Below are positions 5,469 to 47,569 of a stretch of DNA of 64,000 bases, in pieces. The notes under the pieces were generated by a model that saw only the letters and a program-made list of their open reading frames with translations, did no database searches and had not been told where the DNA came from. Position numbers and translations under genes: made by a program. The number at the start of each line of letters is the position of its first letter. Positions within the stretch are counted from its first letter, which is position 1. Source of the stretch: a phage; assembly GCA_014686905.1 (NCBI GenBank), contig GCA_014686905.1_4093.1; one strand, 5' to 3'.

Positions 5469-6989
5469 ATGATTCAAAGCACAGTGGATGTGAAACAATA
5501 TGGGATTAATGCACAACAATACTTATTATCTCAGATTTTCAGTAATCCTGATTTATATGTACGTTGTAAAAATATCCTTAAACCAGAATATTTTGATAAA
5601 ACATTTCATGAAAGTATTCAATACGTGCATGATTATGCTGCAAAATATAGTTCATCACCTACTTTGAAAGATATTGAAGTTAAAGGTGGTTATCAATACG
5701 ATCAATATGAAGTTCAAGAATTACATAAACAATCAGTACTTGATACCTGTGGTGAATTTTGTCGCCATAAAGCATTAGCTTTAGCCGTTGAAAAAGGAAT
5801 GGAACTTGTCCATCAGAAAAAATATGGTGGAATCGAAGAACTAATCCGAGAAGCAATGTTGGTAACGGTACAGAATGAGTTAGGTTTGGATATTTTTGAA
5901 AACCCTGAAGATACAATCCGCTCACTCAGTACAATGCAAGGATCATTTAAGAGTGGTTGGGAAACTCTTGATTACAAACTTTTCGGTGGATTTGGGCGTA
6001 GAGAGTTAGAGATCTTTGCTGCTGCATCAGGTGGTGGTAAATCAGTAGTACTGCAAAATTTAGCAGTTAACTTTGCGAAAGCTGGAATGAATGGTGCATA
6101 CATTTCACTTGAACTAGCTGAAGAGTTGGTTGCTGTTCGTATCTATGGTATGATGACTGAATCAAAACTCAGTAACGTAAAAAATGAAGCTGAAAAGATT
6201 GGATTTGCTGTTAAAGTTGAAGGTAAAAACAGTGGTATGTTGCGTATTAAACGCTTACCTGAATCTGTAACAACCACAGACGATATTGAAAGTTATCTAC
6301 GTGAATTACAAATTAAGATGGAAATCAAACTTGATTATGTATGCGTGGACTATTTGGATCTATTAACTTCTAATCGTCTTGGACCAAATGATAAATCCAA
6401 TACATTTACTAAAGATAAATTTGTATCAGAAGAATTACGTGCTCTTGCATCCAAAATGGATTTGACTGTTTTCACTGCATCTCAGTTTAACCGTAGTGGT
6501 ATGGACGAAGATAAGAAAAGTCAAAGTCAGATTGCTGGTGGTATTTCAAAAATTTATACTGCTGATAACGTAATTTATATTGAAGCAAAAAAAGAAACTG
6601 GCGAACTATGGTTTGATTTCCAAAAAACACGTAACAGTAGTGCAGTAGGTTCCCGTTTGCGTATGTCATATGATATTGATTCATTGAGAGTTCTTGACCA
6701 CGCAACTACAGTACAACAAATGGAAACCGAAGGTAATGGATTCCGTCACAGCGGTGTTTCTAAGATTGGTGGAGGGAACATGGCGTTACCACCCAGCACT
6801 ATGCAAACATTACGTCATTCGCTTTCTGGTGCAGCTAAATCACCATCTGTGCAACCTGACAATACAGTAACACTAAATACTGATAGTGCTCCTAACTCTA
6901 CGACACAAAACGAAATACAGAATCCACAGACACATGCTGGTACTGATCGTGTTCATGCAATGAAGCAATGGTTAAATCAAAGGAAATGA
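5469..6989 (+). CDS. replicative DNA helicase, DnaB/T4 gp41 family
   Basis: Walker A AAASGGGKS, RecA-like core, immediately downstream of primase; GAGG RBS. Confidence 0.75.
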   Translation: MIQSTVDVKQYGINAQQYLLSQIFSNPDLYVRCKNILKPEYFDKTFHESIQYVHDYAAKYSSSPTLKDIEVKGGYQYDQYEVQELHKQSVLDTCGEFCRHKALALAVEKGMELVHQKKYGGIEELIREAMLVTVQNELGLDIFENPEDTIRSLSTMQGSFKSGWETLDYKLFGGFGRRELEIFAAASGGGKSVVLQNLAVNFAKAGMNGAYISLELAEELVAVRIYGMMTESKLSNVKNEAEKIGFAVKVEGKNSGMLRIKRLPESVTTTDDIESYLRELQIKMEIKLDYVCVDYLDLLTSNRLGPNDKSNTFTKDKFVSEELRALASKMDLTVFTASQFNRSGMDEDKKSQSQIAGGISKIYTADNVIYIEAKKETGELWFDFQKTRNSSAVGSRLRMSYDIDSLRVLDHATTVQQMETEGNGFRHSGVSKIGGGNMALPPSTMQTLRHSLSGAAKSPSVQPDNTVTLNTDSAPNSTTQNEIQNPQTHAGTDRVHAMKQWLNQRK

Positions 6990-6992
6990 TAA

Positions 6993-7265
6993 ATGTCTAG
7001 TAAATCCAATAAAAAGAATCTACTTGATAGTATAGTTGACTATACGCCAGAGAAAGATACATTACAGAGTTTTAGTAATCGTGCCGACCACGCAATAAAC
7101 TCTGTGATTCATTTATTGGAGAGCATTGAAGATGAGTTTAACCAAACTGATGCTGAAGATTTAAAAAAACGCTTATTTCTAAGTATAAAAAACCGAGATT
7201 ATAAAAAGTTTCAAAAAGGGTTAGAGAATATAGCACTTGATGAAAAACGTAATAAAGGAAATTAA
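6993..7265 (+). CDS. hypothetical protein
   Basis: 90-aa ORF. Confidence 0.35.
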   Translation: MSSKSNKKNLLDSIVDYTPEKDTLQSFSNRADHAINSVIHLLESIEDEFNQTDAEDLKKRLFLSIKNRDYKKFQKGLENIALDEKRNKGN

Positions 7266-7266
7266 T

Positions 7267-7431
7267 ATGAAGAAAAAGAATATCAAAGAAAATGCATCTT
7301 CTGGAGCTACTTCAGCAGGTGCTATTGCATCAGTCAGTACTGGTTTACATTATCCATTACATCGTAGATTGCCTCCTACTAACTTCTTTGGATACAAAGT
7401 CGTAGAGAAAAAAGATAAGGACAAAGAATGA
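7267..7431 (+). CDS. hypothetical small protein
   Basis: Track ORF 7237..7431; first ATG after upstream stop is 7267. Confidence 0.3.
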   Translation: MKKKNIKENASSGATSAGAIASVSTGLHYPLHRRLPPTNFFGYKVVEKKDKDKE

Positions 7432-7820
7432 AACCATATACATTCTACACAATTCACACTGTAGTAGATATTGGTGATGGTAAAACCCCAACAATCATAG
7501 ATTCTAAGTTCACTGGTGCTATGAACTTGTCTAGGTTGTTGGAAGCTATTATGGTATATGACTATCCAATGATGGTAAGCGTTGTTAAAAATGAAGTCGA
7601 TTTATATAAAGATAATAATTCATCTTTTTATAACATGCCAATTTCTTGGGGAAAATGTACCATAAGCACATTCAAATTCGCATTACCAATGGATGTCGAA
7701 CTTCGTTTGAATGGTATACCATTGGTTCTACCAACCGAATTAAATGGAAAACGAATAACAAAATTTATCACATCTGGTGATGATATTAACATTAGCATCA
7801 GCAAACAGACCTTTTCTTAA
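7428..7820 (+). CDS. hypothetical protein
   Basis: 130-aa ORF, 4-nt overlap with upstream. Confidence 0.4.
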   Translation: MKPYTFYTIHTVVDIGDGKTPTIIDSKFTGAMNLSRLLEAIMVYDYPMMVSVVKNEVDLYKDNNSSFYNMPISWGKCTISTFKFALPMDVELRLNGIPLVLPTELNGKRITKFITSGDDINISISKQTFS

Positions 7821-36576: not shown

Positions 36577-37140
36577 ATGGACGATTTAGATTATACAGAT
36601 AATGCTATTCAGCAGTTGTATGATAACAGTGGTATGTTAGATATACTTCTTGCTGTAGAGAAATATTTCGATGATAATGATTTATATGCGTATAAAGGAA
36701 TTATTGAGGGTGAGTTGGTAGAGGGGCCAATTGTAAGTAAGTATTGGTGTACTGTAACTTTTAAATACTATCGTGAAAACTTCCCTGATCCGACAGCATT
36801 CTCTATTTTGGAGAAGCATGGTACTAAAGTATATGTTAAAGCTGATTATGAAATAACTCCTATCAAAGAACCTAATCGACAAGCTGATATGAAAAGTGTT
36901 GCGACACAATCAGGATCGGTACGTATACCAAAAAATGAAAGAATACCAGTACTATTGGTTAGAGTGCAGATTCCACGAAACTTGATTAATCCAGAAAGTT
37001 TTGATGAATATAAACTAATGGCAGCAGAATTCAATAGTAATCCAATGAATTCTCCTGAGAATATTGAAGAACCTGTAACTGGTGATGATGTGGATTTAGA
37101 TGTAGAAGTAACGGATGAGACACAAGAAGGTGGAATGTAA
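36577..37140 (+). CDS. hypothetical protein with acidic C-terminal tail
   Basis: 187 aa ending EEPVTGDDVDLDVEVTDETQEGGM. Confidence 0.4.
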   Translation: MDDLDYTDNAIQQLYDNSGMLDILLAVEKYFDDNDLYAYKGIIEGELVEGPIVSKYWCTVTFKYYRENFPDPTAFSILEKHGTKVYVKADYEITPIKEPNRQADMKSVATQSGSVRIPKNERIPVLLVRVQIPRNLINPESFDEYKLMAAEFNSNPMNSPENIEEPVTGDDVDLDVEVTDETQEGGM

Positions 37141-37820
37141 TGAAAAAGAAATTAAATGAACAAGGCTTACGTCCGCAAGTTCTCAAAGATTTGATTCATC
37201 CTATCATTAGTGTTGATGAATATACTCCTAAAATTGAAGATAGTAATATTGTTATTATGTTTCAGGTACTTAACAATTTTGATGCAGCATATGATTTATC
37301 TTCTTTTATTGAAAAATCACCTATTGATGTAGCTGATACAGAAGCAGCAGAAACACCAAATTTAGATGGTCGATATCAAGTTTATGTTGAAATGGAACGA
37401 AATGCTGAATTCCCTGAAAAACTTTTACGTTTAATTAAAACTATTGAAAATATTTGTCCAGACCCAGGTTGGAAAATACAACTATATGGTGTTAATGACA
37501 CAATCGATGTTGATTTTGAAGAAATACAGCAGAGAATTGATTTGGGTATTCCTAGTTCAATTAGTGAGTTCCTTGATTATGCTGGTGTTTCAGTAATCAA
37601 AGAAGGAAACATGTTGACATTAAAAACAGCATATGGTAAATTACATTACAGTACTGGAAGCGGTTTTGTTTCAGAAACATATGTGAAAAAGTTATTAAAG
37701 AATGATACACAATTAGACACTTCGCGTCTTAGTTCCATACTAGGGGAAAGCTATACAGTACTACGAAGTGGTGATCAATATGTAATTGGAAGAAACGGGA
37801 AATATTTGGTGTTGCGATGA
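37140..37820 (+). CDS. hypothetical protein
   Basis: 226-aa ORF coupled to upstream gene. Confidence 0.4.
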   Translation: MKKKLNEQGLRPQVLKDLIHPIISVDEYTPKIEDSNIVIMFQVLNNFDAAYDLSSFIEKSPIDVADTEAAETPNLDGRYQVYVEMERNAEFPEKLLRLIKTIENICPDPGWKIQLYGVNDTIDVDFEEIQQRIDLGIPSSISEFLDYAGVSVIKEGNMLTLKTAYGKLHYSTGSGFVSETYVKKLLKNDTQLDTSRLSSILGESYTVLRSGDQYVIGRNGKYLVLR

Positions 37821-38635
37821 GAATTTTAAATATGCTTAAATCTCTTCACGAAACAACCAAATTACATCAGGATGAAAAGTATCGTCGCAGCCTTACTAAA
37901 GATTTAGCATGTCGTATGTATATGCGTAGATTTGAAATTTCAAGAATTGGTAAAGGCTGGGATGATGTAAATCGTGAAGACATTGATCCAGATGCAATTT
38001 TTAAAGCATACATGGCTAGAAAAGTTTTCATAAATGAAAAAACTTTTTATATTGATAGTGATAGAGAATTAGAAAATAAATTTACAAAAGGTTTATGGAA
38101 GATATGGTGTGTTGAAGTATTCGGTGAAGTATTACCTGAGCCACCTGTTCCAGAAACTTATAAAGATTTAAAAAGTATTTTTGATAATGAACATATACAT
38201 TCAAATTTCTCATTATATGATACTGTGTCAGAAGCTGTATTTTATGGTGAGTTACATGGTCATAACAAATACTTTGATAGTATGGTTAGTTTTGATTTGT
38301 TTTGTCACTTGCCTGGTGTATCAAGTTGGACATGTGACCAACACAGAGCAAGTAAGATTGATAAGCGAAAATTCTCGGCCCAAAGATTTATGCAAGTTGC
38401 TATGAGTATGTATAAACTTGATTATCTTGGTTGTCCAGAACCATATAAACATTTTTGGAAAGAAAGAGCACAAAAATGTTTAAACTATTGTATAATCCGT
38501 TTAATGGACACATACATTCTTAAGTTTAGAAATGCAACTGTATACGACATGCCTGAACCACCAAAGAATGAAAAATATCCACCTGTCAAGACATTTGTAT
38601 GGTACAAGGATAAAAGTAACAAAAGGATGCACTAA
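37817..38635 (+). CDS. hypothetical protein
   Basis: 272-aa ORF; terminator overlaps stop. Confidence 0.4.
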   Translation: MRILNMLKSLHETTKLHQDEKYRRSLTKDLACRMYMRRFEISRIGKGWDDVNREDIDPDAIFKAYMARKVFINEKTFYIDSDRELENKFTKGLWKIWCVEVFGEVLPEPPVPETYKDLKSIFDNEHIHSNFSLYDTVSEAVFYGELHGHNKYFDSMVSFDLFCHLPGVSSWTCDQHRASKIDKRKFSAQRFMQVAMSMYKLDYLGCPEPYKHFWKERAQKCLNYCIIRLMDTYILKFRNATVYDMPEPPKNEKYPPVKTFVWYKDKSNKRMH

Positions 38636-38652
38636 GGTGCGTCCTTTTTTCT
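38624..38652 (+). terminator. rho-independent terminator overlapping stop codon
   Basis: AGGATGCAC-TAAG-GTGCGTCCT-TTTTTT. Confidence 0.65.
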
Positions 38653-38661
38653 TTTCAGGTG

Positions 38662-38690
38662 TTGACATGTGTAGTCGAAGTATGTACAAT
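38662..38690 (+). promoter_or_regulatory. sigma70-like promoter
   Basis: TTGACA-17-TACAAT directly after terminator. Confidence 0.6.
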
Positions 38691-38731
38691 ATCACCATAG
38701 CGTAAATTTTAATTGATTATGAGGTTTTATA

Positions 38732-39859
38732 ATGAAAGGTAAATATTTTTTCATTGAAAATGGCAAAGAAGTTGAGATTCAAGAATTTAACTATAATTAT
38801 GTACTGAACTCTTTATTGAAACAATATGACCGTTCATCAAACAAAAAATACATTTATAATGTAATTGTTCGCCGCACCTATGACTCATTGGGTAATCCGT
38901 TATTTGATGTAAAAACTCTGTCATTAGATGAAATCTATTTTGATAATAAACGTCTGAAAGTTCTTGATTTAATGAAGGATAAAATTCATTTTAGTAATAT
39001 TAGAATTGATCCTAACATGCCAGTACCGCCATTAGAGCGTGAATATCGTGAATGGAAAGAAGGTCGTGCCAAACCACGTTTAGACTTGGTACAAACATCA
39101 CCAGATGTACCTGCACCTATTGTTCTTAAGAAAAAACCTATCAACCCAGACGATAGCAGAATTGATGACATTGAAAGATGGGTTGAATTCCCTAGTACTA
39201 TTGAAAAGAATTCAGTAAAAGTACTAGACTGGTTTGTAAACTTACCAGTTTGTGCACAAGAAATTGGAACTAAGATTCAACAAATTTCAGAACGTCAATT
39301 GGATCTTAACTCAGCATTACAACAGCATAGTGATTATATTAGAATGCTTATGAATAACCTTACTGTTGCGTTGGAAACGTTGTTCCCATTGAAGCCGACC
39401 TTTACACAGAAATTGTTTGGTAAAACTGATATCAAAGTGCAACCATCAGATTTGCCAAAAGTGATGAAAGCACTAAATGAAGCAGTTAAGTATGACACTA
39501 ATAAGTTTAGTGGTCTTAGTACGATGTTTTCAGAACTTAGAAACGAAGTTAATGAAATCAAAAATGAACTTGAATATGGTAAGTTGGGTTGTGAATACGC
39601 ACTACGTTGTGTGGATGATGCGTTTGAATATGAATTAACATTAGAACGTATTATGAAAATGGGAATCACCACCTCCATGACTGAAACGAGCATTATTGCA
39701 ACAAGTAAGCAATATCAAGTTGATATGAATCGTATGGTAGATATTCAAACTATTACTATTCCTTTGATTATCAATCGTTTACAATCACAGACAGGTAAAG
39801 CTGTGGATGAGAGTACTGTAGAAATTATTCGTAATCTGGCATATGGTAACAAAGAGTAA
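38732..39859 (+). CDS. hypothetical protein
   Basis: 375-aa ORF after consensus promoter. Confidence 0.45.
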   Translation: MKGKYFFIENGKEVEIQEFNYNYVLNSLLKQYDRSSNKKYIYNVIVRRTYDSLGNPLFDVKTLSLDEIYFDNKRLKVLDLMKDKIHFSNIRIDPNMPVPPLEREYREWKEGRAKPRLDLVQTSPDVPAPIVLKKKPINPDDSRIDDIERWVEFPSTIEKNSVKVLDWFVNLPVCAQEIGTKIQQISERQLDLNSALQQHSDYIRMLMNNLTVALETLFPLKPTFTQKLFGKTDIKVQPSDLPKVMKALNEAVKYDTNKFSGLSTMFSELRNEVNEIKNELEYGKLGCEYALRCVDDAFEYELTLERIMKMGITTSMTETSIIATSKQYQVDMNRMVDIQTITIPLIINRLQSQTGKAVDESTVEIIRNLAYGNKE

Positions 39860-39868
39860 AAAAAATAC

Positions 39869-39897
39869 TTGACTATCATACGTGCTGCCCGTATAAT
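39869..39897 (+). promoter_or_regulatory. sigma70-like promoter
   Basis: TTGACT-17-TATAAT; -10 flanked by inverted repeat GTGCTGC...GCAGCAC. Confidence 0.6.
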
Positions 39898-39945
39898 GTT
39901 TATCACAGAGCAGCACATCATATTAAATTAAACGAGGAATACTAA

Positions 39946-41082
39946 ATGTCCGAGAAAGAAATCAATCCTAAAAAAGCATCCACCGCAGCTAAATCAGCAA
40001 AACGCACTACTAAAACTGCGTCTAAAGGTCATACAATTGATGCAAGTGATATTTTTAACCAAACTACAAAATCACTACCAGTACTGAAAGATGTTAAGGG
40101 AAATACTATGTCTCTAACAGTTCAAAACATCAATACTGTTGGTACAACTGCTGGTGCTGCTGTTGGGCGTTTGGCTGATGAAATTATGTCTAAAGTTAAT
40201 GTAACGGATGACAATACCGAGTTTGGTAAATCAATCACCACAATTCTTACGTTGACTCGTGCAGTTGATATTGACAGTCTTCAAGAAGATAAATCAATTG
40301 TTGGTCGTATTAAGAAATTCTTTGTTAATGCTCAACAGAAAGTAGGTGATCAGTACAAAAACAGTAAAGAGCAAATTGACGAAATTATGAAAACTCTTCA
40401 AACTGGTATTAATCGCCAGCACGGAGAATGTGAATGGCTTGATAAAGCATATAATGAAAACAAAGAATATTTGTTTGAATTACGTGATACATTAGTTGGT
40501 TTAGAAGAAGTAACTAAAACACAAGATGCATTATTATTAGAAATGCAAGCAGACAAAAATGTAGACTCTTTTGCTATTCAAGAGCAAAAGATGATTTGTG
40601 AAGCACTTTCTAAACAAGAAGATAAGATTCGTCGTCTTATCATGATGTGCGAGCTAAGTGGTCCACGTTTGATGAGTATGAAAAAAGTAAACTTGAACAC
40701 TGTTTCTAAGTTTGAAGATTTAAAATCTGTTGTTATTCCAGCATGGAAGTCTCAATTGGCTGAACAGTTAATTTCCGAGCGTCAACGTAAGGATAATGAA
40801 CTAGGCAATCTAATTGATAATGAGACAAACCGTCTTTTGGAAACTAACTCTAAAATGGTTGCAGCAAATATGTTGGACGCAGCAAAGGCAAACAACCGTG
40901 GTATTGTGGATATTAAAACCTTGCGTAATGTACATAAAACGATGATTGACAGTATTGAAGCAGTTATTGAAGAAGAGAAAAAAGGTAAATTGGAACGTGA
41001 ACGTGCTAAACAGGAAATTGCACAACTTTCCTATGAACTGGAAGACACTCTTCGTGAAATTGCCGAAAAAGCTAACAAGTAA
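39946..41082 (+). CDS. hypothetical protein, coiled-coil rich
   Basis: 378-aa ORF after consensus promoter. Confidence 0.45.
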   Translation: MSEKEINPKKASTAAKSAKRTTKTASKGHTIDASDIFNQTTKSLPVLKDVKGNTMSLTVQNINTVGTTAGAAVGRLADEIMSKVNVTDDNTEFGKSITTILTLTRAVDIDSLQEDKSIVGRIKKFFVNAQQKVGDQYKNSKEQIDEIMKTLQTGINRQHGECEWLDKAYNENKEYLFELRDTLVGLEEVTKTQDALLLEMQADKNVDSFAIQEQKMICEALSKQEDKIRRLIMMCELSGPRLMSMKKVNLNTVSKFEDLKSVVIPAWKSQLAEQLISERQRKDNELGNLIDNETNRLLETNSKMVAANMLDAAKANNRGIVDIKTLRNVHKTMIDSIEAVIEEEKKGKLERERAKQEIAQLSYELEDTLREIAEKANK

Positions 41083-41085
41083 TAG

Positions 41086-41114
41086 TTGACATATGAGTGC
41101 GTTTTTAATATAAT
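41086..41114 (+). promoter_or_regulatory. consensus sigma70 promoter upstream of dexA
   Basis: TTGACA-17-TATAAT; -10 sits in the loop of the upstream terminator hairpin. Confidence 0.65.
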
Positions 41115-41137
41115 CTTATTGAAAACGCACTCTTTTT
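41095..41137 (+). terminator. hairpin terminator overlapping dexA promoter
   Basis: GAGTGCGTTTT...AAAACGCACTC (20-nt loop holding the -10) then TTTTT. Confidence 0.45.
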
Positions 41138-41161
41138 AATGTACAGATAAGGAACTAACTT

Positions 41162-41851
41162 ATGAAACGTCGTCATATTAGTGTTGATATTGAAGCTCTT
41201 GGAACACCTGAACTTTCCGGTTATGATATTATTATCCCAAATTACGCAGCAGTAGTAGTTCCAAGTAAACCTGAAAATGACATTCGTCAGTTCTTATATA
41301 TTAAATTACCATACCAGGATCAAGTTGCAACTGGTTTAAAATCAGACGCAGGTGCAATGGATTTTTGGATGAATACATGTCAGAAAGAATACCCTAATGC
41401 ATATGCTGAAGTTGCCAGTACTATGAAACTCAAAGCACCCGAACTGTATGGACCGAATGGTCAATCACGACGATTTTTTGCATACAGTAGTATTGTTGAT
41501 TTCTGGAAAGAATTACGTTACAATGATTATGGTGAAGAAGTTCCTCATTCAGTCTGGGGTAACGGATGTAACTTCGATTGTAGCATTTTACAAGCAAACC
41601 ATTTAAAACTAATGAACGCTGGTGAGTTATGGAAGTATGATGCACCTGAAAATGCACGCACATTGAAACGTTTATTGAATGAAGAAGCTCGTATTGAAAT
41701 GGATGAAATCGTTTCGGTACAGTTGGATAAATTTATCACATATGCAAATACGTGTGGGATTAATGGGTTGGAGTTACATCATCCACTATTTGATGCAGCA
41801 CGTGAAGCAATCCAGATTTCATTCTGTCTAAACAAGCTTAAAATGGATTAA
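41162..41851 (+). CDS. dexA: DEDDh 3'-5' exonuclease, T4 DexA-like
   Basis: Exo I DIEALG, Exo II WGNGCNFDCSIL, Exo III HHPLFDAAREA; 229 aa. Confidence 0.7.
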   Translation: MKRRHISVDIEALGTPELSGYDIIIPNYAAVVVPSKPENDIRQFLYIKLPYQDQVATGLKSDAGAMDFWMNTCQKEYPNAYAEVASTMKLKAPELYGPNGQSRRFFAYSSIVDFWKELRYNDYGEEVPHSVWGNGCNFDCSILQANHLKLMNAGELWKYDAPENARTLKRLLNEEARIEMDEIVSVQLDKFITYANTCGINGLELHHPLFDAAREAIQISFCLNKLKMD

Positions 41852-41854
41852 TAC

Positions 41855-42949
41855 ATGAATTTCATTATTCTGTTAATACCTGCTCTTATCGTTGTATTCG
41901 TTATGAAATACATGTACGATAAGCATATCAGTACTAAAGAACTATTGATTCATATTGGTTGTTGTCTGGTTGGTGCGGCTCTTGTTCTTGGTATTTCATA
42001 CGCAATCAACTATAGCCAGCTTTATGATGTTGAGATTCTGAATGGTCAAGTAACTTCAAAATACAGCCACAAAGAATATTGCACACAATCTAGTTCATGT
42101 AAGCACTATACATGGCATGAGAAGTGCCATACGCGATATGATAGTAAAGGTAAATCACATCGTGAGTGTGAATCATATAAGGTTTTTGATTACTCATATG
42201 AAGTTGATTGGTATGTGAAAAGTACAGTAGGTGAGTTTGAGATTGAACGTGTGAACCGTCAAGGTACAATGACACCACCACGTTGGCAGCAAGTTATGAT
42301 TGGTGACTATGCCGCCGCAGAGAGTTCATATATCAACTATCTATTTGCTGATAAGAACTCATTGTTTAGTCCTGAAGAACTACACAACATGTATGATGAA
42401 AAGTATCTTAGTACTATTCCAGAATACCCAAGTGTAGTTGATTATTACAAAACACATCACGTAATTAACACTACAAATTACAACGTTGATGGTTACGATG
42501 AATACCTTCGTAATGAGCTAAAAACGATGGGTGCACGAAAGCAGGTAAACATCCAAGTACTAGTTTATGATTACAAAGATGTTGATTTTGTTGATGCTAC
42601 CCTTGCATCGTGGCGTGGTGGTAAGAAGAATGATGTTATTATGTTCTTTGGTATTGACAATGATGGTAACGTTGTCAAATTTTACAGTACATCATTTGCA
42701 CAAGGAATGAAGAATGAAGAGTTACATGCAAAGATGCGTATTGATGCATTAAATGAAAAATTAACTCTTGACTTACTAGTTAAAGAAGTACATAATATTG
42801 ACACACAGTTTGAGAGACTCTCTAATAAAGAGTTTGAGTACTTGTCAGTAAAAATGGAACCTAGAAAAGATGTTCTTATCGGTGCTTCCATTGTTTTGTT
42901 GATTGTGTCTATTTTCATTGGCCTTTATATGAGGGATAACGATTTATGA
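41855..42949 (+). CDS. membrane protein, N- and C-terminal TM helices, Cys-rich ectodomain
   Basis: Hydrophobic N-terminus and C-terminal LIGASIVLLIVSIFIGLY; Cys cluster. Confidence 0.45.
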   Translation: MNFIILLIPALIVVFVMKYMYDKHISTKELLIHIGCCLVGAALVLGISYAINYSQLYDVEILNGQVTSKYSHKEYCTQSSSCKHYTWHEKCHTRYDSKGKSHRECESYKVFDYSYEVDWYVKSTVGEFEIERVNRQGTMTPPRWQQVMIGDYAAAESSYINYLFADKNSLFSPEELHNMYDEKYLSTIPEYPSVVDYYKTHHVINTTNYNVDGYDEYLRNELKTMGARKQVNIQVLVYDYKDVDFVDATLASWRGGKKNDVIMFFGIDNDGNVVKFYSTSFAQGMKNEELHAKMRIDALNEKLTLDLLVKEVHNIDTQFERLSNKEFEYLSVKMEPRKDVLIGASIVLLIVSIFIGLYMRDNDL

Positions 42950-43500
42950 ATGGTAAACTCCTTGCGTTAATTGGTATTTTGGTAGTTATTGTACTAATGG
43001 TGTTTGGTTCTATTAGTATGTATGTTGGTGCACATGATCGTGCAGTTGAGTTTGAAGGAAACATTAAAAAGTACTATGATGCATCTGAAAGTCAACTTAG
43101 CAATTATACTCTTACTATTCAAGATAAGGTTCAAGTAGCAGATAAGTACAAAAATGCGTTGAAAGAAACGATTGAGTCATACTTTAAAGGGCGTGAAGGT
43201 GTTGACCAGAAGTTTGTAATGTCACAGATTCAACAACAGGTTCCAAATCTTGATCCTAAAATTTATCAGGAATTGATGGTGACAATTGAAGCAGGACGTA
43301 CAAAGTTCAACAATCTTCAGAAAATGAAAATTGACCAGTGTACTGATTATGCTAAGTTCCGCAAAGGCTTCTGGAATTCCAAAATTCTTGATTCGAATAC
43401 GTTTCCAAGTGAAAATATTGAACACCTTTGTACAGTAGTATCTGATACACGTACCAAGAAAGCAATGGATACTGGTATTCAAGAATCAATTAAACTATAA
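42946..43500 (+). CDS. N-terminally membrane-anchored protein
   Basis: Signal-anchor LLALIGILVVIVLMVF; terminator downstream. Confidence 0.45.
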   Translation: MNGKLLALIGILVVIVLMVFGSISMYVGAHDRAVEFEGNIKKYYDASESQLSNYTLTIQDKVQVADKYKNALKETIESYFKGREGVDQKFVMSQIQQQVPNLDPKIYQELMVTIEAGRTKFNNLQKMKIDQCTDYAKFRKGFWNSKILDSNTFPSENIEHLCTVVSDTRTKKAMDTGIQESIKL

Positions 43501-43509
43501 TTAAATGTT

Positions 43510-43534
43510 GGGAGTACTTTGTACTCCCCTTTTC
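43510..43534 (+). terminator. rho-independent terminator
   Basis: GGGAGTAC-TTT-GTACTCCC-CTTTTCT. Confidence 0.65.
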
Positions 43535-43547
43535 TATGGGGTGTACT

Positions 43548-44135
43548 ATGTTTTTAAAAAATACTTATGAATTAATTAAAATGCTTCAAAATATGAATTC
43601 CGGTGGCTTGTTTCCCTATTACTCTGAGGATGAAACTCATCGTTTAGTCCTTAAATTGGATGAAACTGGACGTATTATATCACTAAGAACAACAGTCCCC
43701 AGTGTAGAACCAGTAATTACCAAATCAACTCAAAATTCAGGAACTGCTGTTAAAACACCACAAACATACAACTCTAATTACCAACAACCACAAATGTACA
43801 CGATTAGCACTCCACCTATTAAACGAGTTGCTTGTATTGTGAATATAAAAGTATCTAAGGACTATCGCGACTTAATATCAGTTGAATGGTCAGAACTAAC
43901 ATCATCATTAGCAACAAATGGATTTGTAGTAACAAATACAGGTCTAGCACAAAATGTGAAAGAAGGACAACAGATCATGAGTGCATTGTATCTTAGTAAT
44001 GGTTGTGTTATCATCAATGGTAAGTTGTATAGCGATGCCGACCCCACTGCATTCACTGAAGATTTGATTGGTGATAAAGAATACAGCATTCTAGAAATTA
44101 TGAATTTGAAAAAGGTATATGAAAACCATGACTAG
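43548..44135 (+). CDS. hypothetical protein
   Basis: Track ORF 43536; ATG 43548 preferred. Confidence 0.4.
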   Translation: MFLKNTYELIKMLQNMNSGGLFPYYSEDETHRLVLKLDETGRIISLRTTVPSVEPVITKSTQNSGTAVKTPQTYNSNYQQPQMYTISTPPIKRVACIVNIKVSKDYRDLISVEWSELTSSLATNGFVVTNTGLAQNVKEGQQIMSALYLSNGCVIINGKLYSDADPTAFTEDLIGDKEYSILEIMNLKKVYENHD

Positions 44136-44700
44136 ATTTCATCAGGATGATTTGCCATTTATCCAAGAACTAGAAGAACTGGTGATAAGTATTATGGATG
44201 AAATTAGTACTTGGGATATAACAGTTTTTCGAAATGTATATGATAAAGTTGTGAATTTTAAAAATGTTAATATTGAAGTAAAACATAATAATTTTTACTT
44301 AACAAAACAATTCATTCTAACTCGACCAGGATCAAAGCCAGTTAAACGTAATTTATCATTCGGACACCTGATTGGTGCAGAAAATGTACATGATGAATGG
44401 GTTGATTCAATCTATTCGTATACAAAAGAACTTATTCCTGATATTGAGAAAAAATATTATCTTAGTATCACATTAGATGAACAAGGAAAACTAAATGCGT
44501 ATTCCATAAATTCATCAGCACACGTTCCATTACATTCAACGTCAATTGGTGATAAACAATTACTAATCGATTCATCAACATGGCACAATAGGGAAAGTTT
44601 CTCCGCTGAAACTTTTCAGTACTCGGTATCTGAACCAAAGTCTCCATTTGATTTTGTGTTTGTTAATAACATCCTTTTACGTTTTGGTGTAGGAGTCTAA
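44119..44700 (+). CDS. hypothetical protein (weak match to the EE-x-F-Q family motif: ETFQYSVSEP)
   Basis: 193-aa ORF. Confidence 0.4.
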   Translation: MKTMTRFHQDDLPFIQELEELVISIMDEISTWDITVFRNVYDKVVNFKNVNIEVKHNNFYLTKQFILTRPGSKPVKRNLSFGHLIGAENVHDEWVDSIYSYTKELIPDIEKKYYLSITLDEQGKLNAYSINSSAHVPLHSTSIGDKQLLIDSSTWHNRESFSAETFQYSVSEPKSPFDFVFVNNILLRFGVGV

Positions 44701-44702
44701 TT

Positions 44703-45056
44703 ATGCTAATTTATTTGAGTGTTCTTGTTATTTCATTACTGGTATCATTAGCAGTACTGAAAGCTGTTGCCATCGGTCGTAGTAAAATTGACAGTACTGA
44801 AACGAGTTCCGTTCTAGATTTGATTATGGATCATCCTAAAGTCTGTGGTATTATTGTATTGTTTGTTATTCTGATTAATACGTATATTGTCAGGGATCAT
44901 TTATATAATATGTATGATTGTAGTGTTAGATCTATATCACAAGGTGTTGAAACTGACTATAGCTGGTACTATGAGAAATGTAGATTTAAAAATCAGCATG
45001 GTATTTGGGTTGATTTTGACAAACTACGTGGAACTCCTTCAGGAGAAGAAGAATAA
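44703..45056 (+). CDS. small membrane protein
   Basis: Two hydrophobic segments. Confidence 0.35.
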   Translation: MLIYLSVLVISLLVSLAVLKAVAIGRSKIDSTETSSVLDLIMDHPKVCGIIVLFVILINTYIVRDHLYNMYDCSVRSISQGVETDYSWYYEKCRFKNQHGIWVDFDKLRGTPSGEEE

Positions 45057-45058
45057 TT

Positions 45059-45550
45059 ATGTTTGAGTTCCCAGAAGAGTCATTTGACTTTATTGACCCT
45101 ACTGATGATGGATACCGACACATTAACATTTATAGTAAAGCTAGAACTAAGTTAGGTAGAGATCTATCTAACTTTTCTTCACATAGCTTCACACTTGAGC
45201 CATATGGTTGGTTCCCTTCAGTTGAAACATTTTACTTTTGGTTTTTAACTGGGCAAAAACATGATGACCTTAGAAAAGTATCTGGTGCAGCAGCAAAAGC
45301 AGCCGCTAACAAATATATGCATGATCGAATTGAAATGACGGATGATTGTATTTCTATTATTCAAGATGCTATTTGTGCTAAGATAATTCAAAATCCAGAG
45401 TTAGCCGAAAGATTAAGAAAAAGCAAGTTACCTTTTTACCATTACTATGTATATGGTGGTAAAGTTGTAGATGTATCCGACGAACATGATTGGTTTGTTA
45501 AAACATTCGAATATATAAGAACGGTGTTAAAGGAAAACTATAATGGGTAA
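45059..45550 (+). CDS. possible NADAR/YbiA-like domain protein
   Basis: LSNFSSHSFTLEPYGWFPSVETFYFWFL...AAKAAANK resembles the NADAR LSNF...SVEHYFQA...AK pattern; by eye only. Confidence 0.35.
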   Translation: MFEFPEESFDFIDPTDDGYRHINIYSKARTKLGRDLSNFSSHSFTLEPYGWFPSVETFYFWFLTGQKHDDLRKVSGAAAKAAANKYMHDRIEMTDDCISIIQDAICAKIIQNPELAERLRKSKLPFYHYYVYGGKVVDVSDEHDWFVKTFEYIRTVLKENYNG

Positions 45551-45821
45551 ATGTTGGGTATGCTTCAAGGTGTTTGATGAAGAATATGAAATAATATTAG
45601 ATGTATTGCCACAGCAGTACATGGTGTGTAATGAAAAATACAAATTGGACACCTACCCGACCCCCAAGTACATGGGAATATGTCCTTTGTGTGATGCAAA
45701 TGGCGTGTCCAATAGTGAGATTTCATTCACTAACCAAGCCACAACTAACTGTGTATCTGGGTATATAAGAGAGAATCGAGAATATTTTATTAGGAGATTA
45801 TATGAACGACAAAATCTTTGA
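45543..45821 (+). CDS. small Cys-rich (zinc-ribbon-like) protein
   Basis: CWVC...CPLC pairs. Confidence 0.35.
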   Translation: MGKCWVCFKVFDEEYEIILDVLPQQYMVCNEKYKLDTYPTPKYMGICPLCDANGVSNSEISFTNQATTNCVSGYIRENREYFIRRLYERQNL

Positions 45822-46032
45822 TACATATGACATCGATACTTTACTAACACCATCTGATAACAGTACTGTTAAAATGGACATGTACTGGATTGTCGTTGAT
45901 AAAAAAGTATTTAGACATAAAATTACTAAAGTTTGGCAATGTAATAAAAACAAATCTATTGTTGAAGGATTGGCACAATGCATTCCTAATGCAGAGGTTT
46001 TATTTTTACCATATGCATATACAAAGGAATAA
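45802..46032 (+). CDS. hypothetical small protein
   Basis: 76-aa ORF. Confidence 0.3.
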   Translation: MNDKIFDTYDIDTLLTPSDNSTVKMDMYWIVVDKKVFRHKITKVWQCNKNKSIVEGLAQCIPNAEVLFLPYAYTKE

Positions 46033-46033
46033 A

Positions 46034-46195
46034 ATGAAAAAAACTTGGAAAATATTCACAATACCTGCTATAATGTTGTTATTGGCACTTTTCACACCGC
46101 AGAGTCATGTATTGTCTCTTAACATTGTGGAAATAATTCTTCTTGTAATTCACTGTGTCGTGTGTTATAATTATGTAAAAGGTGATAAAGAATGA
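46034..46195 (+). CDS. small membrane protein (53 aa)
   Basis: ATG 46034 after AAAGGAA; hydrophobic core. Confidence 0.3.
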   Translation: MKKTWKIFTIPAIMLLLALFTPQSHVLSLNIVEIILLVIHCVVCYNYVKGDKE

Positions 46196-46614
46196 AGTTC
46201 TTTAAAATTCGAATTGGTGTAAGTTCTGGTTTATCTCATTGGGTATTTTATGATTTACCTGATAGTTATACTATTGATGATGTAATTGATTTATATACCG
46301 AAGATCAACAATGGGTGTTAGATACCGAAACACATAGAATTGATTGTCAAGAGATTAGTGAAGAAGATTACAAACACGGAAAGCAAGCCATGAAGTATTT
46401 TGAAACAAATATCAAAATGCTGACTGAAAACGTATTTCCAGTAAAAGAATGGGCAATTTTACTTGCTAATCCTAAAAAACCTGTTAGAATTGGTTATCCA
46501 AATTTTCATATGGTGTATCGTATGAATGATAAGCGAGAGCTTAACTATCAATACGATTACGATTCATCTAAGTTTGGAGTTCTTAAACAATTTTTAAAGG
46601 CTTATCCAGTATGA
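46192..46614 (+). CDS. hypothetical protein
   Basis: 140-aa ORF, ATGA overlap. Confidence 0.4.
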   Translation: MKFFKIRIGVSSGLSHWVFYDLPDSYTIDDVIDLYTEDQQWVLDTETHRIDCQEISEEDYKHGKQAMKYFETNIKMLTENVFPVKEWAILLANPKKPVRIGYPNFHMVYRMNDKRELNYQYDYDSSKFGVLKQFLKAYPV

Positions 46615-46946
46615 GTGAAGATAGTAAAGAGTATATTTTACGTTGTTCTTGTGGCGATAAAATGGAGCATTGCGTTCACATTGCACAATTTGACTTGACA
46701 GAGGAATATGGAGATGATAAACTTGGTCAATGTCTGATAAGTATGCGTTTAAATCCTTTTTTAAAATGGTATAACCGTGTATGGGTTGCAGTAAAGTATG
46801 TTTTTGGTGTAAACGACTATCAATATGTAGAAGCAACAATTGATGTTGACATTCTAAAAGAAGTTGTGTTACAATTAGAAGATACTAGAACTGATGAGGT
46901 TAAAAAAGAACAAAGAGAAAAACGTACTGATGTGAAGGTTTTATGA
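46611..46946 (+). CDS. hypothetical protein
   Basis: 111-aa ORF. Confidence 0.35.
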   Translation: MSEDSKEYILRCSCGDKMEHCVHIAQFDLTEEYGDDKLGQCLISMRLNPFLKWYNRVWVAVKYVFGVNDYQYVEATIDVDILKEVVLQLEDTRTDEVKKEQREKRTDVKVL

Positions 46947-47137
46947 GTACTGAACTTTATGAAAAAAAGTACTGTACAAATTGCTCAACTGAGTATACAA
47001 TACAAGGTATGTTGATTTGTACAATATGTCAGTCAAAGAAATCAGCAACTTTCATCGTTGATGATAGATTTGGTGATTTGAAACAGTTTAAAGCAAACCG
47101 CAATCTTCGTATTTTTAGCAATCTAAATAAGGAATAA
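46943..47137 (+). CDS. small zinc-ribbon protein
   Basis: CTNC...CTIC. Confidence 0.35.
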   Translation: MSTELYEKKYCTNCSTEYTIQGMLICTICQSKKSATFIVDDRFGDLKQFKANRNLRIFSNLNKE

Positions 47138-47140
47138 TAT

Positions 47141-47569
47141 ATGAATATCGAACAAACTATCCGTGAACATTCTTTCTTCGCTCCAGAAACTGGTCGTGTT
47201 ATTGAGAGCGTCAAAATCGAAGAACTAATGGTCAATGTTAAATACAAAGAACCAAATGATGAGATTAGCAGTACTTTTTGTGCTCTACGTGCACCATTCC
47301 GTAATGAAAAAGCTAAGAAACCAGCATATGTTCTTGCCATTGCACTGGGTTGTGTTGTAAAACTTGCAGTTGATGAAAATCTTCTGAATATTAAAGTTGC
47401 ACCAAGCAATGACGATGAAAACATTGATTTGAACTTTGATGGTTCTCTTGATGAAGATGTATTTTTCCAACAGTCACTTGTTTACGACTTCCGTACAGTG
47501 ACACATTCTCACATCAAGTTCATTAATGAAATGGTTGAGATTGTTGCTGAATACGAAGAATCTCTCTAA
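47141..47569 (+). CDS. EE-x-F-Q-motif small protein family member
   Basis: C-terminal LDEDVFFQQSLVYDF; terminator downstream. Confidence 0.45.
   Translation: MNIEQTIREHSFFAPETGRVIESVKIEELMVNVKYKEPNDEISSTFCALRAPFRNEKAKKPAYVLAIALGCVVKLAVDENLLNIKVAPSNDDENIDLNFDGSLDEDVFFQQSLVYDFRTVTHSHIKFINEMVEIVAEYEESL

Follow-up and report, generated by a model that had tools for sequence, protein, structure and literature searches.

Does the short gene at positions 45059–45550 of this phage DNA encode an enzyme that acts on ADP-ribose, and if so, on which form of it? From motifs picked by eye, the original prediction named the product as a possible NADAR/YbiA-like protein that could counter a DarT-type defence. 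We examined the gene within the whole stretch of 64,000 nucleotides that was analysed (referred to here as the window), followed its relatives into other phages and compared them with the NADARs that have been characterised so far.

The gene and its surroundings

The predicted gene proved to be an exact open reading frame, running from ATG to TAA with a product of 163 aa, and it is annotated as a CDS in Escherichia phage PBECO4, where its counterpart is gp432 (YP_009150746.1), labelled ‘hypothetical protein’. We use the name gp432 for the product of the window gene as well.

45059..45550, plus strand: CDS of 163 aa, orthologue of PBECO4 gp432; a single NADAR-fold domain by prediction, belonging to clade ‘F’ (PHROG 652)

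Between positions 44000 and 47000, the window is 99.9–100% identical to Escherichia phages ECO103 4-12-1, PBECO4, slurp01 and their relatives, which are Asteriusvirus jumbo phages. The gene is embedded in a long run of small genes that all lie on the same strand; only 2 nt separate the upstream stop codon from its start, and the next ORF begins at 45543, inside its end, giving an overlap of 8 nt. Purifying selection on the gene is strong: dN/dS amounts to 0.024 against the fEgEco12 orthologue and to 0.06 against the RaK2 orthologue, with dS saturated.

A Pfam scan of the 17 ORFs located at positions 36577–47569 matched only TelA and an Rv2179c-like exoribonuclease, and the local context therefore gives no clue to function. 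Domains of the ART, Macro, SLOG and DUF4326 families were not found among these 17 ORFs, and no Macro, SLOG or DUF4326 match lies within 2 kb of the gene. The ten neighbouring ORFs (42946–47569) include no adjoining DarT gene and gave no credible Pfam domain, the only match being a sub-threshold one to Spore_III_AF (E = 0.0047). The gene is an orphan within the phage genome, with no adjacent DarT1 toxin gene.

Some of the neighbouring genes carry labels or matches of their own. A TelA-like protein (39946–41082, plus strand, 2.2e-37) and the Rv2179c-like 3′–5′ exoribonuclease (41162–41851, plus strand, Pfam 1.5e-8) are encoded 3–5 kb upstream of the gp432 gene on the same strand. The ORF that overlaps the end of the gp432 gene by 8 nt (45543–45821, plus strand) encodes a 92-aa Cys-rich, zinc-ribbon-like protein (CWVC ... 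CPLC), which is labelled ‘DNA primase/helicase’ in fEgEco12 yet has no Pfam match. The ORFs at 42946–43500 and 46611–46946, both on the plus strand, correspond to PBECO4 gp436 and gp428, respectively; both are labelled ‘virion structural protein’, and the former is LemA-like according to the fEgEco12 annotation.

Profile and fold searches point to the NADAR superfamily

When gp432 was searched as a single sequence, no match was obtained in Pfam or NCBIfam at E ≤ 10 or in the PDB with phmmer, and its sole direct assignment was to PHROG 652, of ‘unknown function’ (5.9e-45). We attribute these empty searches to divergence and do not count them as evidence against homology. A first family profile, built from 27 homologues and searched with hmmsearch against all PDB sequences, matched exactly two chains, both of them NADARs: the Phytophthora NADAR 8BAU (1.1e-4) and E. 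coli YbiA 2B3W (4.8e-4).

Profile–profile comparisons were performed with hhalign, using 175 domain sequences of the clade, 108 sequences of the T4 gp30.3/AdfN family and 113 of the YbiA family. The clade aligned with the gp30.3 family, which is the closest family to gp432 by this method, at 97.9% (E = 3.7e-13) and with the YbiA family at 95.9% (E = 5.4e-9, 135 columns), while gp30.3 against YbiA, the positive control, gave 97.5% (E = 6.8e-12), each value coming from a single pairwise comparison. Since the scores of the clade lie near that of the control, it is about as distant from each NADAR family as those two families are from one another.

The curated Pfam models behave differently. gp432 does not reach the threshold of PF08719 (NADAR), giving no Pfam match at E ≤ 10, and only 5 of its 27 relatives touch this model (best E = 0.024). 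Neither does gp432 match PF08010, for which its relatives score at most 27 bits (E = 4.4e-6) against a cut-off of 36, and our own gp30.3 HMM did not match the gp432 ORF. Considering that the Pfam thresholds are not reached and that the canonical lysine is missing (see below), we do not file gp432 as an AdfN orthologue.

A confident AlphaFold2 model of gp432 (mean pLDDT 90.7, pTM 0.84) has the alpha+beta fold of YbiA, with a helical core between two small beta-sheets. A Foldseek search of the PDB with this model placed the three solved NADAR structures on top (probability 1.00, 1.00 and 0.99; TM 0.54–0.61), and the first non-NADAR match followed at a probability of 0.03 and a TM of 0.14. In a viral structure library, the members of the gp432 family are nameless or ‘DprA-like’, and most of the remoter matches that bear a name are labelled ‘NADAR domain’ and come from giant viruses and phages.

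The by-eye resemblance had been drawn from two segments, DLSNFSSHSFTLEPYGWFPSVETFYFWF and LRKVSGAAAKAAANK, which are present in the product as residues 35–62 and 71–85, respectively. It is not a chance likeness: absent from single-sequence searches, it is clear in the profile and fold searches, and the motifs picked out (LSNF, SVE and AK) align with true NADAR motifs. A profile match to the NADAR family, the absence of which had been put forward as the refutation of this assignment, is present in the hhalign scores of 95.9–97.9% and in the restriction of PDB matches to NADAR chains. Taken from profile, profile–profile and predicted-fold evidence, it is almost certain that gp432 is a homologue within the NADAR superfamily. 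Distinct, nameless and mostly phage-borne, its clade stands as sister to T4 gp30.3/AdfN.

An exhaustive HMM search (E ≤ 1e-3) placed 2,089 representatives at 50% identity in the clade, 645 of them below 1e-30, and a gp432-type gene was detected by tblastn in 547 phage records; in all 60 of the matches listed from these 547, the gene is a ‘hypothetical protein’ or has no annotation. The carriers include Asteriusvirus and RaK2-like jumbo phages and the Ackermannviridae (Det7, SFP10 and CBA120-like), as well as phages of Vibrio, Erwinia, Serratia, Ralstonia and Burkholderia. Phage rV5 (Vequintavirus) gave no match to any of our three HMMs.

E. coli YbiA is annotated as an N-glycosidase, and gp432 could accordingly be read as a housekeeping enzyme of that kind, working on intermediates of the riboflavin pathway, or its likeness to NADARs could be spurious, as the empty single-sequence Pfam, NCBIfam and PDB searches might seem to suggest. 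We regard this as very improbable, given that three independent lines, the profile, profile–profile and fold comparisons, all lead to NADAR and leave the next match far behind, that the clade is overwhelmingly borne by phages (the 547 records) and that its partners, described below, are ADP-ribose modules and not riboflavin genes.

The active-site region departs from that of known NADARs

In order to define the active-site region, reported contacts and mutagenesis of 8BAU, the E. coli C7 NADAR and T4 AdfN were combined with our alignments, and conservation was counted over 175 family sequences. The following positions are referred to below:

45107..45136, plus strand: N-terminal clade motif D17-G18-x-x-H21-I-N23-I-Y25-S26 (conservation and hhalign)
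45164..45175, plus strand: ‘LSNF’ NADAR motif L36-S37-N38-F39 (conservation and alignment)
45224..45226, plus strand: E56, position of the NADAR catalytic/ribose-binding Glu (conserved in 175/175; alignment)
45245..45247, plus strand: L63, position of the canonical phosphate-binding Lys (Glu+7), not Lys in gp432
45296..45298, plus strand: K80 in the ‘AK..G(R)’ motif (conserved in 173/175; alignment)
45308..45310, plus strand: N84, position of the pyrophosphate-shielding Arg, Pn R79 (‘AKKLGR’ alignment)
45440..45448, plus strand: H128-Y129-Y130, last-strand region (conservation and alignment)

Several of these elements are held in common with known NADARs. The LSNF motif of gp432 (L in 168, S in 158, N in 172 and F in 166 of the 175 sequences) aligns with FLSNF of 8BAU, FSNF of YbiA and LSNF of T4 gp30.3. 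The counterparts of the invariant E56 are Pn E43, E. coli C7 E88 and T4 AdfN E36, a Glu that contacts the distal ribose (PMC11543638, PMC11825919), and K80 corresponds to Pn K75 and to C7 K115, the latter being required for rescue from DarT1 in vivo (PMC11543638). Within the N-terminal motif (D17 169, G18 174, H21 169, N23 175, Y25 166 and S26 171 of 175), ‘INxYS’ is common to the clade and to YbiA (‘INFYS’), where hhalign aligns ‘vInFYs’; D17, G18 and H21 form its clade-specific part.

H128, Y129 and Y130 occur in 172, 169 and 169 of the 175 sequences. Y130 aligns with Pn W133, and hhalign sets H128 against H122 of T4 gp30.3. The last-strand residue of NADARs is a Glu in YbiA, an Asp in BC4488 and DarG1 and a His in phage NADARs (PMC11543638, PMC11125620). 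In the comparison of the clade with YbiA, H128 is paired one residue past the YbiA Glu, with the His of VEH, and not with the Glu itself; we put this offset down to the narrow YbiA alignment, and the reading of H128 as a His in place of Glu would rest on the two studies just cited.

Other positions differ. Characterised NADARs require for their activity a Lys seven residues after the catalytic Glu (Pn K50, C7 K95, T4 K43), and only this Lys and one other residue are conserved throughout the superfamily (PMC11543638); in the clade, the column of this Lys holds S in 43, G in 40, L in 39 and K in only 14 of 175 sequences, and in gp432 it is L63, which aligns with T4 K43. We considered K67 as a ‘migrated lysine’ that might stand in for the missing one; a K or R is found somewhere in the loop that follows the L63 position in 149/175 sequences, with no conservation of its place. 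The column of Pn R79 contains R in 84 and K in 43 sequences (R/K in 127 of 175) and is Asn in the Asteriusvirus/RaK2 subgroup, and the loop that bears Pn D130 is deleted in the clade alignment. gp432 itself departs from its clade at four positions where conservation reaches 85% or more (W59Y, Y60F, G83A and F97C). Near-invariant residues peculiar to the clade are D17, G18, H21, Y129, W145 and R154. The changes at the Glu+7 Lys, the D130 loop, the R79 equivalent and these four positions indicate that ligand binding is not identical to that of known NADARs, and, judging from the lost Glu+7 Lys, the substrate of the clade could differ as well.

These changes also raise the possibility that gp432 is not catalytic and serves as a binding module or decoy for ADP-ribose or nucleic acid, its hydrolase activity having been lost along with the Lys that is gone across the clade, the Pn R79 equivalent and the four clade-conserved positions. 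This seems quite improbable, however, as the polar residues of active-site type are almost invariant (D17, H21, N23, E56, K80, H128, Y129, Y130 and R154), selection on the gene is strongly purifying and T4-type NADARs that have His in place of Glu/Asp stay active (PMC11825919, PMC11125620).

Comparison with characterised phage and cellular systems

T4 gp30.3, now AdfN (PF08010), clears from guanine in phage DNA the ADP-ribose attached by DarT1, and it neutralises DarTG1, as do two further phage NADARs, those of Bas32 and Bas60 (PMC11825919). gp432 resembles T4 gp30.3/AdfN in being of similar size, a single domain and an orphan among small phage genes. The two have in common LSNF, the catalytic Glu (E56 and E36, respectively) and G..AK..G, and both have a His (H128 and H122, respectively) where cellular NADARs have Glu or Asp. 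Unlike AdfN, gp432 has L63 at the position of the essential K43 and lacks a PF08010 match, and its clade carries the N-terminal DG..HINIYSK and the HYY motifs and is fused to other partners. With the cellular NADAR/YbiA family (PF08719; 2B3W, 8BAU and 8BAT), which includes the DarG1 antitoxin of DarTG1, gp432 shares ∼17% identity, but it lacks both the Glu+7 Lys and the E/D....D..WG loop that in 8BAU binds the distal ribose and the pyrophosphate. Unlike the gene for DarG1, its own gene has no adjoining DarT toxin gene.

The AdfN of Bas60 (phage PaulScherrer, MZ501100; bas60_0111, ‘YbiA-like N-glycosidase’) matches the YbiA profile (1.5e-7) and retains the Glu+7 Lys and a VEAS..D motif. In a scan of the first 99 kb of Bas60, it gave no match to the gp432-clade profile, and it therefore belongs to a different clade, being a canonical NADAR. 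Like gp432, it is an orphan phage NADAR, one that serves in counter-defence and is active against DarTG1 (PMC11825919). Besides its NADAR, Bas60 carries a cluster annotated as macrodomain protein, phosphoribosyltransferase and HAD-like protein, possibly another ADP-ribose-processing cassette; the NADAR gene and this cluster are covered by L024 10489–12704 and 32615–33166.

The DarG-type macrodomains of chimalliviruses, AdfM, are of the DarG2 type and strip from thymine in phage DNA the ADP-ribose that DarT2 attaches (2026; PMC13309987). The fold of gp432 is unrelated to Macro, and the analogy would be one of function, namely counter-defence by de-ADP-ribosylation of DNA, which on the side of gp432 is proposed. 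NADARs also reverse the ADP-ribosylation of guanosine in RNA and that of cytidine (PMC12945103), so that the substrate range of the superfamily already extends beyond the products of DarT1.

Relatives of gp432 are fused to ADP-ribose-processing modules

Among the top 150 representatives of the clade, 84 proteins of at least 200 aa were searched against Pfam for fused domains. DUF4326 was found in 25 of the 84, a YAcAr SLOG domain in 18, and Macro and DUF488-N3a in 6 each; a canonical NADAR, a Metallophos domain and an Rv2179c-like exoribonuclease (2.6e-47) were each found in 1/84. The recurrent partners, DarG-type macrodomain, DUF4326 and SLOG, are ADP-ribose-processing modules.

The fullest arrangement is seen in P0086, a 532-aa protein from a metagenomic chimallivirus contig (L017, 5001–6599), which reads Macro–DUF4326–NADAR-like–YAcAr SLOG. 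Its gene is close to genes for chimallin and a virion RNA polymerase subunit, indicating that P0086 comes from a nucleus-forming phage, and its macrodomain is of the DarG type (5M3I, 1.9e-47; 5M31/5M3E, 1.6e-46). Nucleus-forming phages may have in P0086 a protein that combines several activities against ADP-ribosylation. The same modules occur as neighbouring genes 158–160 in an operon of Erwinia phage AH06 (Agricanvirus; L019, 2474–4150): gene 158 encodes a DarG-type macrodomain (4.7e-24), the ORF of gene 159 spans 115 aa and has no Pfam match, possibly being a divergent DUF4326, and gene 160, annotated as ‘DNA processing protein A’, combines the NADAR-like domain with SLOG. By analogy with AdfM, to whose type the macrodomains fused or adjacent to gp432 relatives belong, linkage to an anti-DarT2 macrodomain is in keeping with a NADAR-like domain that complements it on other base–ADP-ribose adducts, for which guanine, the target of DarT1, would be the obvious candidate.

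P0096, a metagenomic protein of 1415 aa, contains a canonical NADAR (residues 10–143, 1.1e-20), the NADAR-like domain (residues 548–698) and DUF4326 (residues 1185–1274). The presence of both NADAR types in one polypeptide argues for specificities that are not redundant.

The same partner set raises the main rival explanation, in which fold and chemistry are as we propose and the enzyme works on an immune signal or toxin that is soluble and derived from ADP-ribose, such as cyclic ADPR isomers or ADPr-1′′-phosphate, disposed of in a pathway with Macro, SLOG and DUF4326. The 25, 18 and 6 fusions to DUF4326, YAcAr SLOG and Macro correspond exactly to the modules to which Iyer et al. (PMC9503650) assigned the degradation of low-molecular-weight ADPr derivatives in their proposal, the changed phosphate-binding residues would suit a ligand other than DNA-linked ADPr, and genes for a 2H/LigT phosphoesterase and a Metallophos protein lie near one family member (L013). 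However, every NADAR tested acts on base-linked ADP-ribose in DNA or RNA (PMC11125620, PMC12945103), the fused macrodomain is of the DNA-acting DarG type (PMC13309987) and the gp432 gene stands alone, with none of the three partners within 2 kb. We consider a soluble substrate rather unlikely and base-linked ADP-ribose in nucleic acid the better reading.

In the loci examined, the genes around family members are heterogeneous. An Rv2179c-like exonuclease gene, ∼4 kb upstream, and a DNA ligase gene are near one member (L012), and synteny with TelA recurs at another (L015). In a metagenomic phage contig (L009), a family member (6001–6435) adjoins a convergent gene (6500–7678, minus strand) for a 391-aa Alt-like ADP-ribosyltransferase with an ADPrib_exo_Tox match (3.3e-22) and a GNAT-like segment. 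T4 gene 30.3 lies ∼3 kb from alt (L003), and T4-like NADARs are co-expressed with ARTs according to Iyer et al. (PMC9503650). gp432 might on these grounds be the partner of the phage’s own ADP-ribosyltransferases, erasing or limiting the ADP-ribosylation or RNAylation that Alt/Mod-like enzymes carry out on phage or host molecules. An ART neighbour is found in only 1/8 contexts, though, no ART-family Pfam match occurs among the 17 ORFs around the gp432 gene and the role of T4 AdfN against host DarT1 has been demonstrated (PMC11825919), so that we judge such a partnership improbable and retain the reading of gp432 as directed against enzymes of the host.

Proposed function and implications

We propose that gp432 is most likely an ADP-ribosyl N-glycohydrolase for counter-defence, possibly against DarT1, a reading drawn from sequence comparison and the structure model. 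Its separate parts are put forward with different degrees of confidence. That the substrate of gp432 is a conjugate or derivative of ADP-ribose is probable. The proposal as a whole, a NADAR-superfamily ADP-ribose hydrolase that counters host ADP-ribosyltransferases acting on phage nucleic acid, we hold to be somewhat favoured, and that it specifically reverses guanine ADP-ribosylation of DNA, as an anti-DarT1 enzyme would, is the leading single hypothesis, held tentatively.

In the proposed mechanism, gp432 would be expressed as one of the many small genes of the jumbo phage and would bind ADP-ribose in a helical cleft presumably lined by E56, K80, H128-Y129-Y130 and D17/H21/N23. The next step would be hydrolysis of the N-glycosidic bond that joins C1′′ of the ribose to the base. 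Removal of the marks that a host ADP-ribosyltransferase has left on phage nucleic acid would rescue replication; the best precedent for such host enzymes is the guanine-specific ADP-ribosyltransferases of the DarT1 type.

A wider reading, which is possible and which we regard as somewhat doubtful, sees in the clade a branch of the NADARs whose active site was remodelled through loss of the Lys and the D..W loop and acquisition of the DG..H and HYY motifs, and whose substrate lies beyond those of characterised NADARs; this substrate may be a different base–ADP-ribose linkage or an ADP-ribose-derived immune signal. The clade would then perform one step of a modular ADP-ribose-erasing pathway (Macro/DUF4326/NADAR-like/SLOG) that large phages direct against several defences.

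Given that the partners belong to the ADP-ribose-centred modules that the Aravind group has described, the clade was very probably already counted as NADAR by Iyer et al. 2022 (PMC9503650), and what is gained here is therefore a sharper definition of the clade and a hypothesis rather than a new principle. While a NADAR is to be expected in a jumbo phage, this clade is large and mechanistically deviant. Phage NADARs have only recently been found to defeat DarTG1, those tested being T4 gp30.3, the canonical NADAR of Bas60 and that of Bas32, and gp432 represents a much larger clade that is nameless in the databases (‘hypothetical protein’, PHROG unknown, no Pfam) and is carried by jumbo phages, biocontrol Ackermannviridae, Vibrio phages and nucleus-forming phages. 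The missing Lys, together with the recurrent fusions to DarG-type macrodomain, DUF4326 and SLOG, offers a handle on how NADAR specificity is set, and the same fusions bear on whether phages assemble multi-enzyme ADP-ribose erasers. gp432 is a credible candidate for a phage weapon that counters the ADP-ribosylating defences of bacteria. Should the clade prove active, a large number of phages that are candidates for therapy would hold a previously unrecognised anti-ADP-ribosylation gene, and predictions of host range against DarT-type systems would change.
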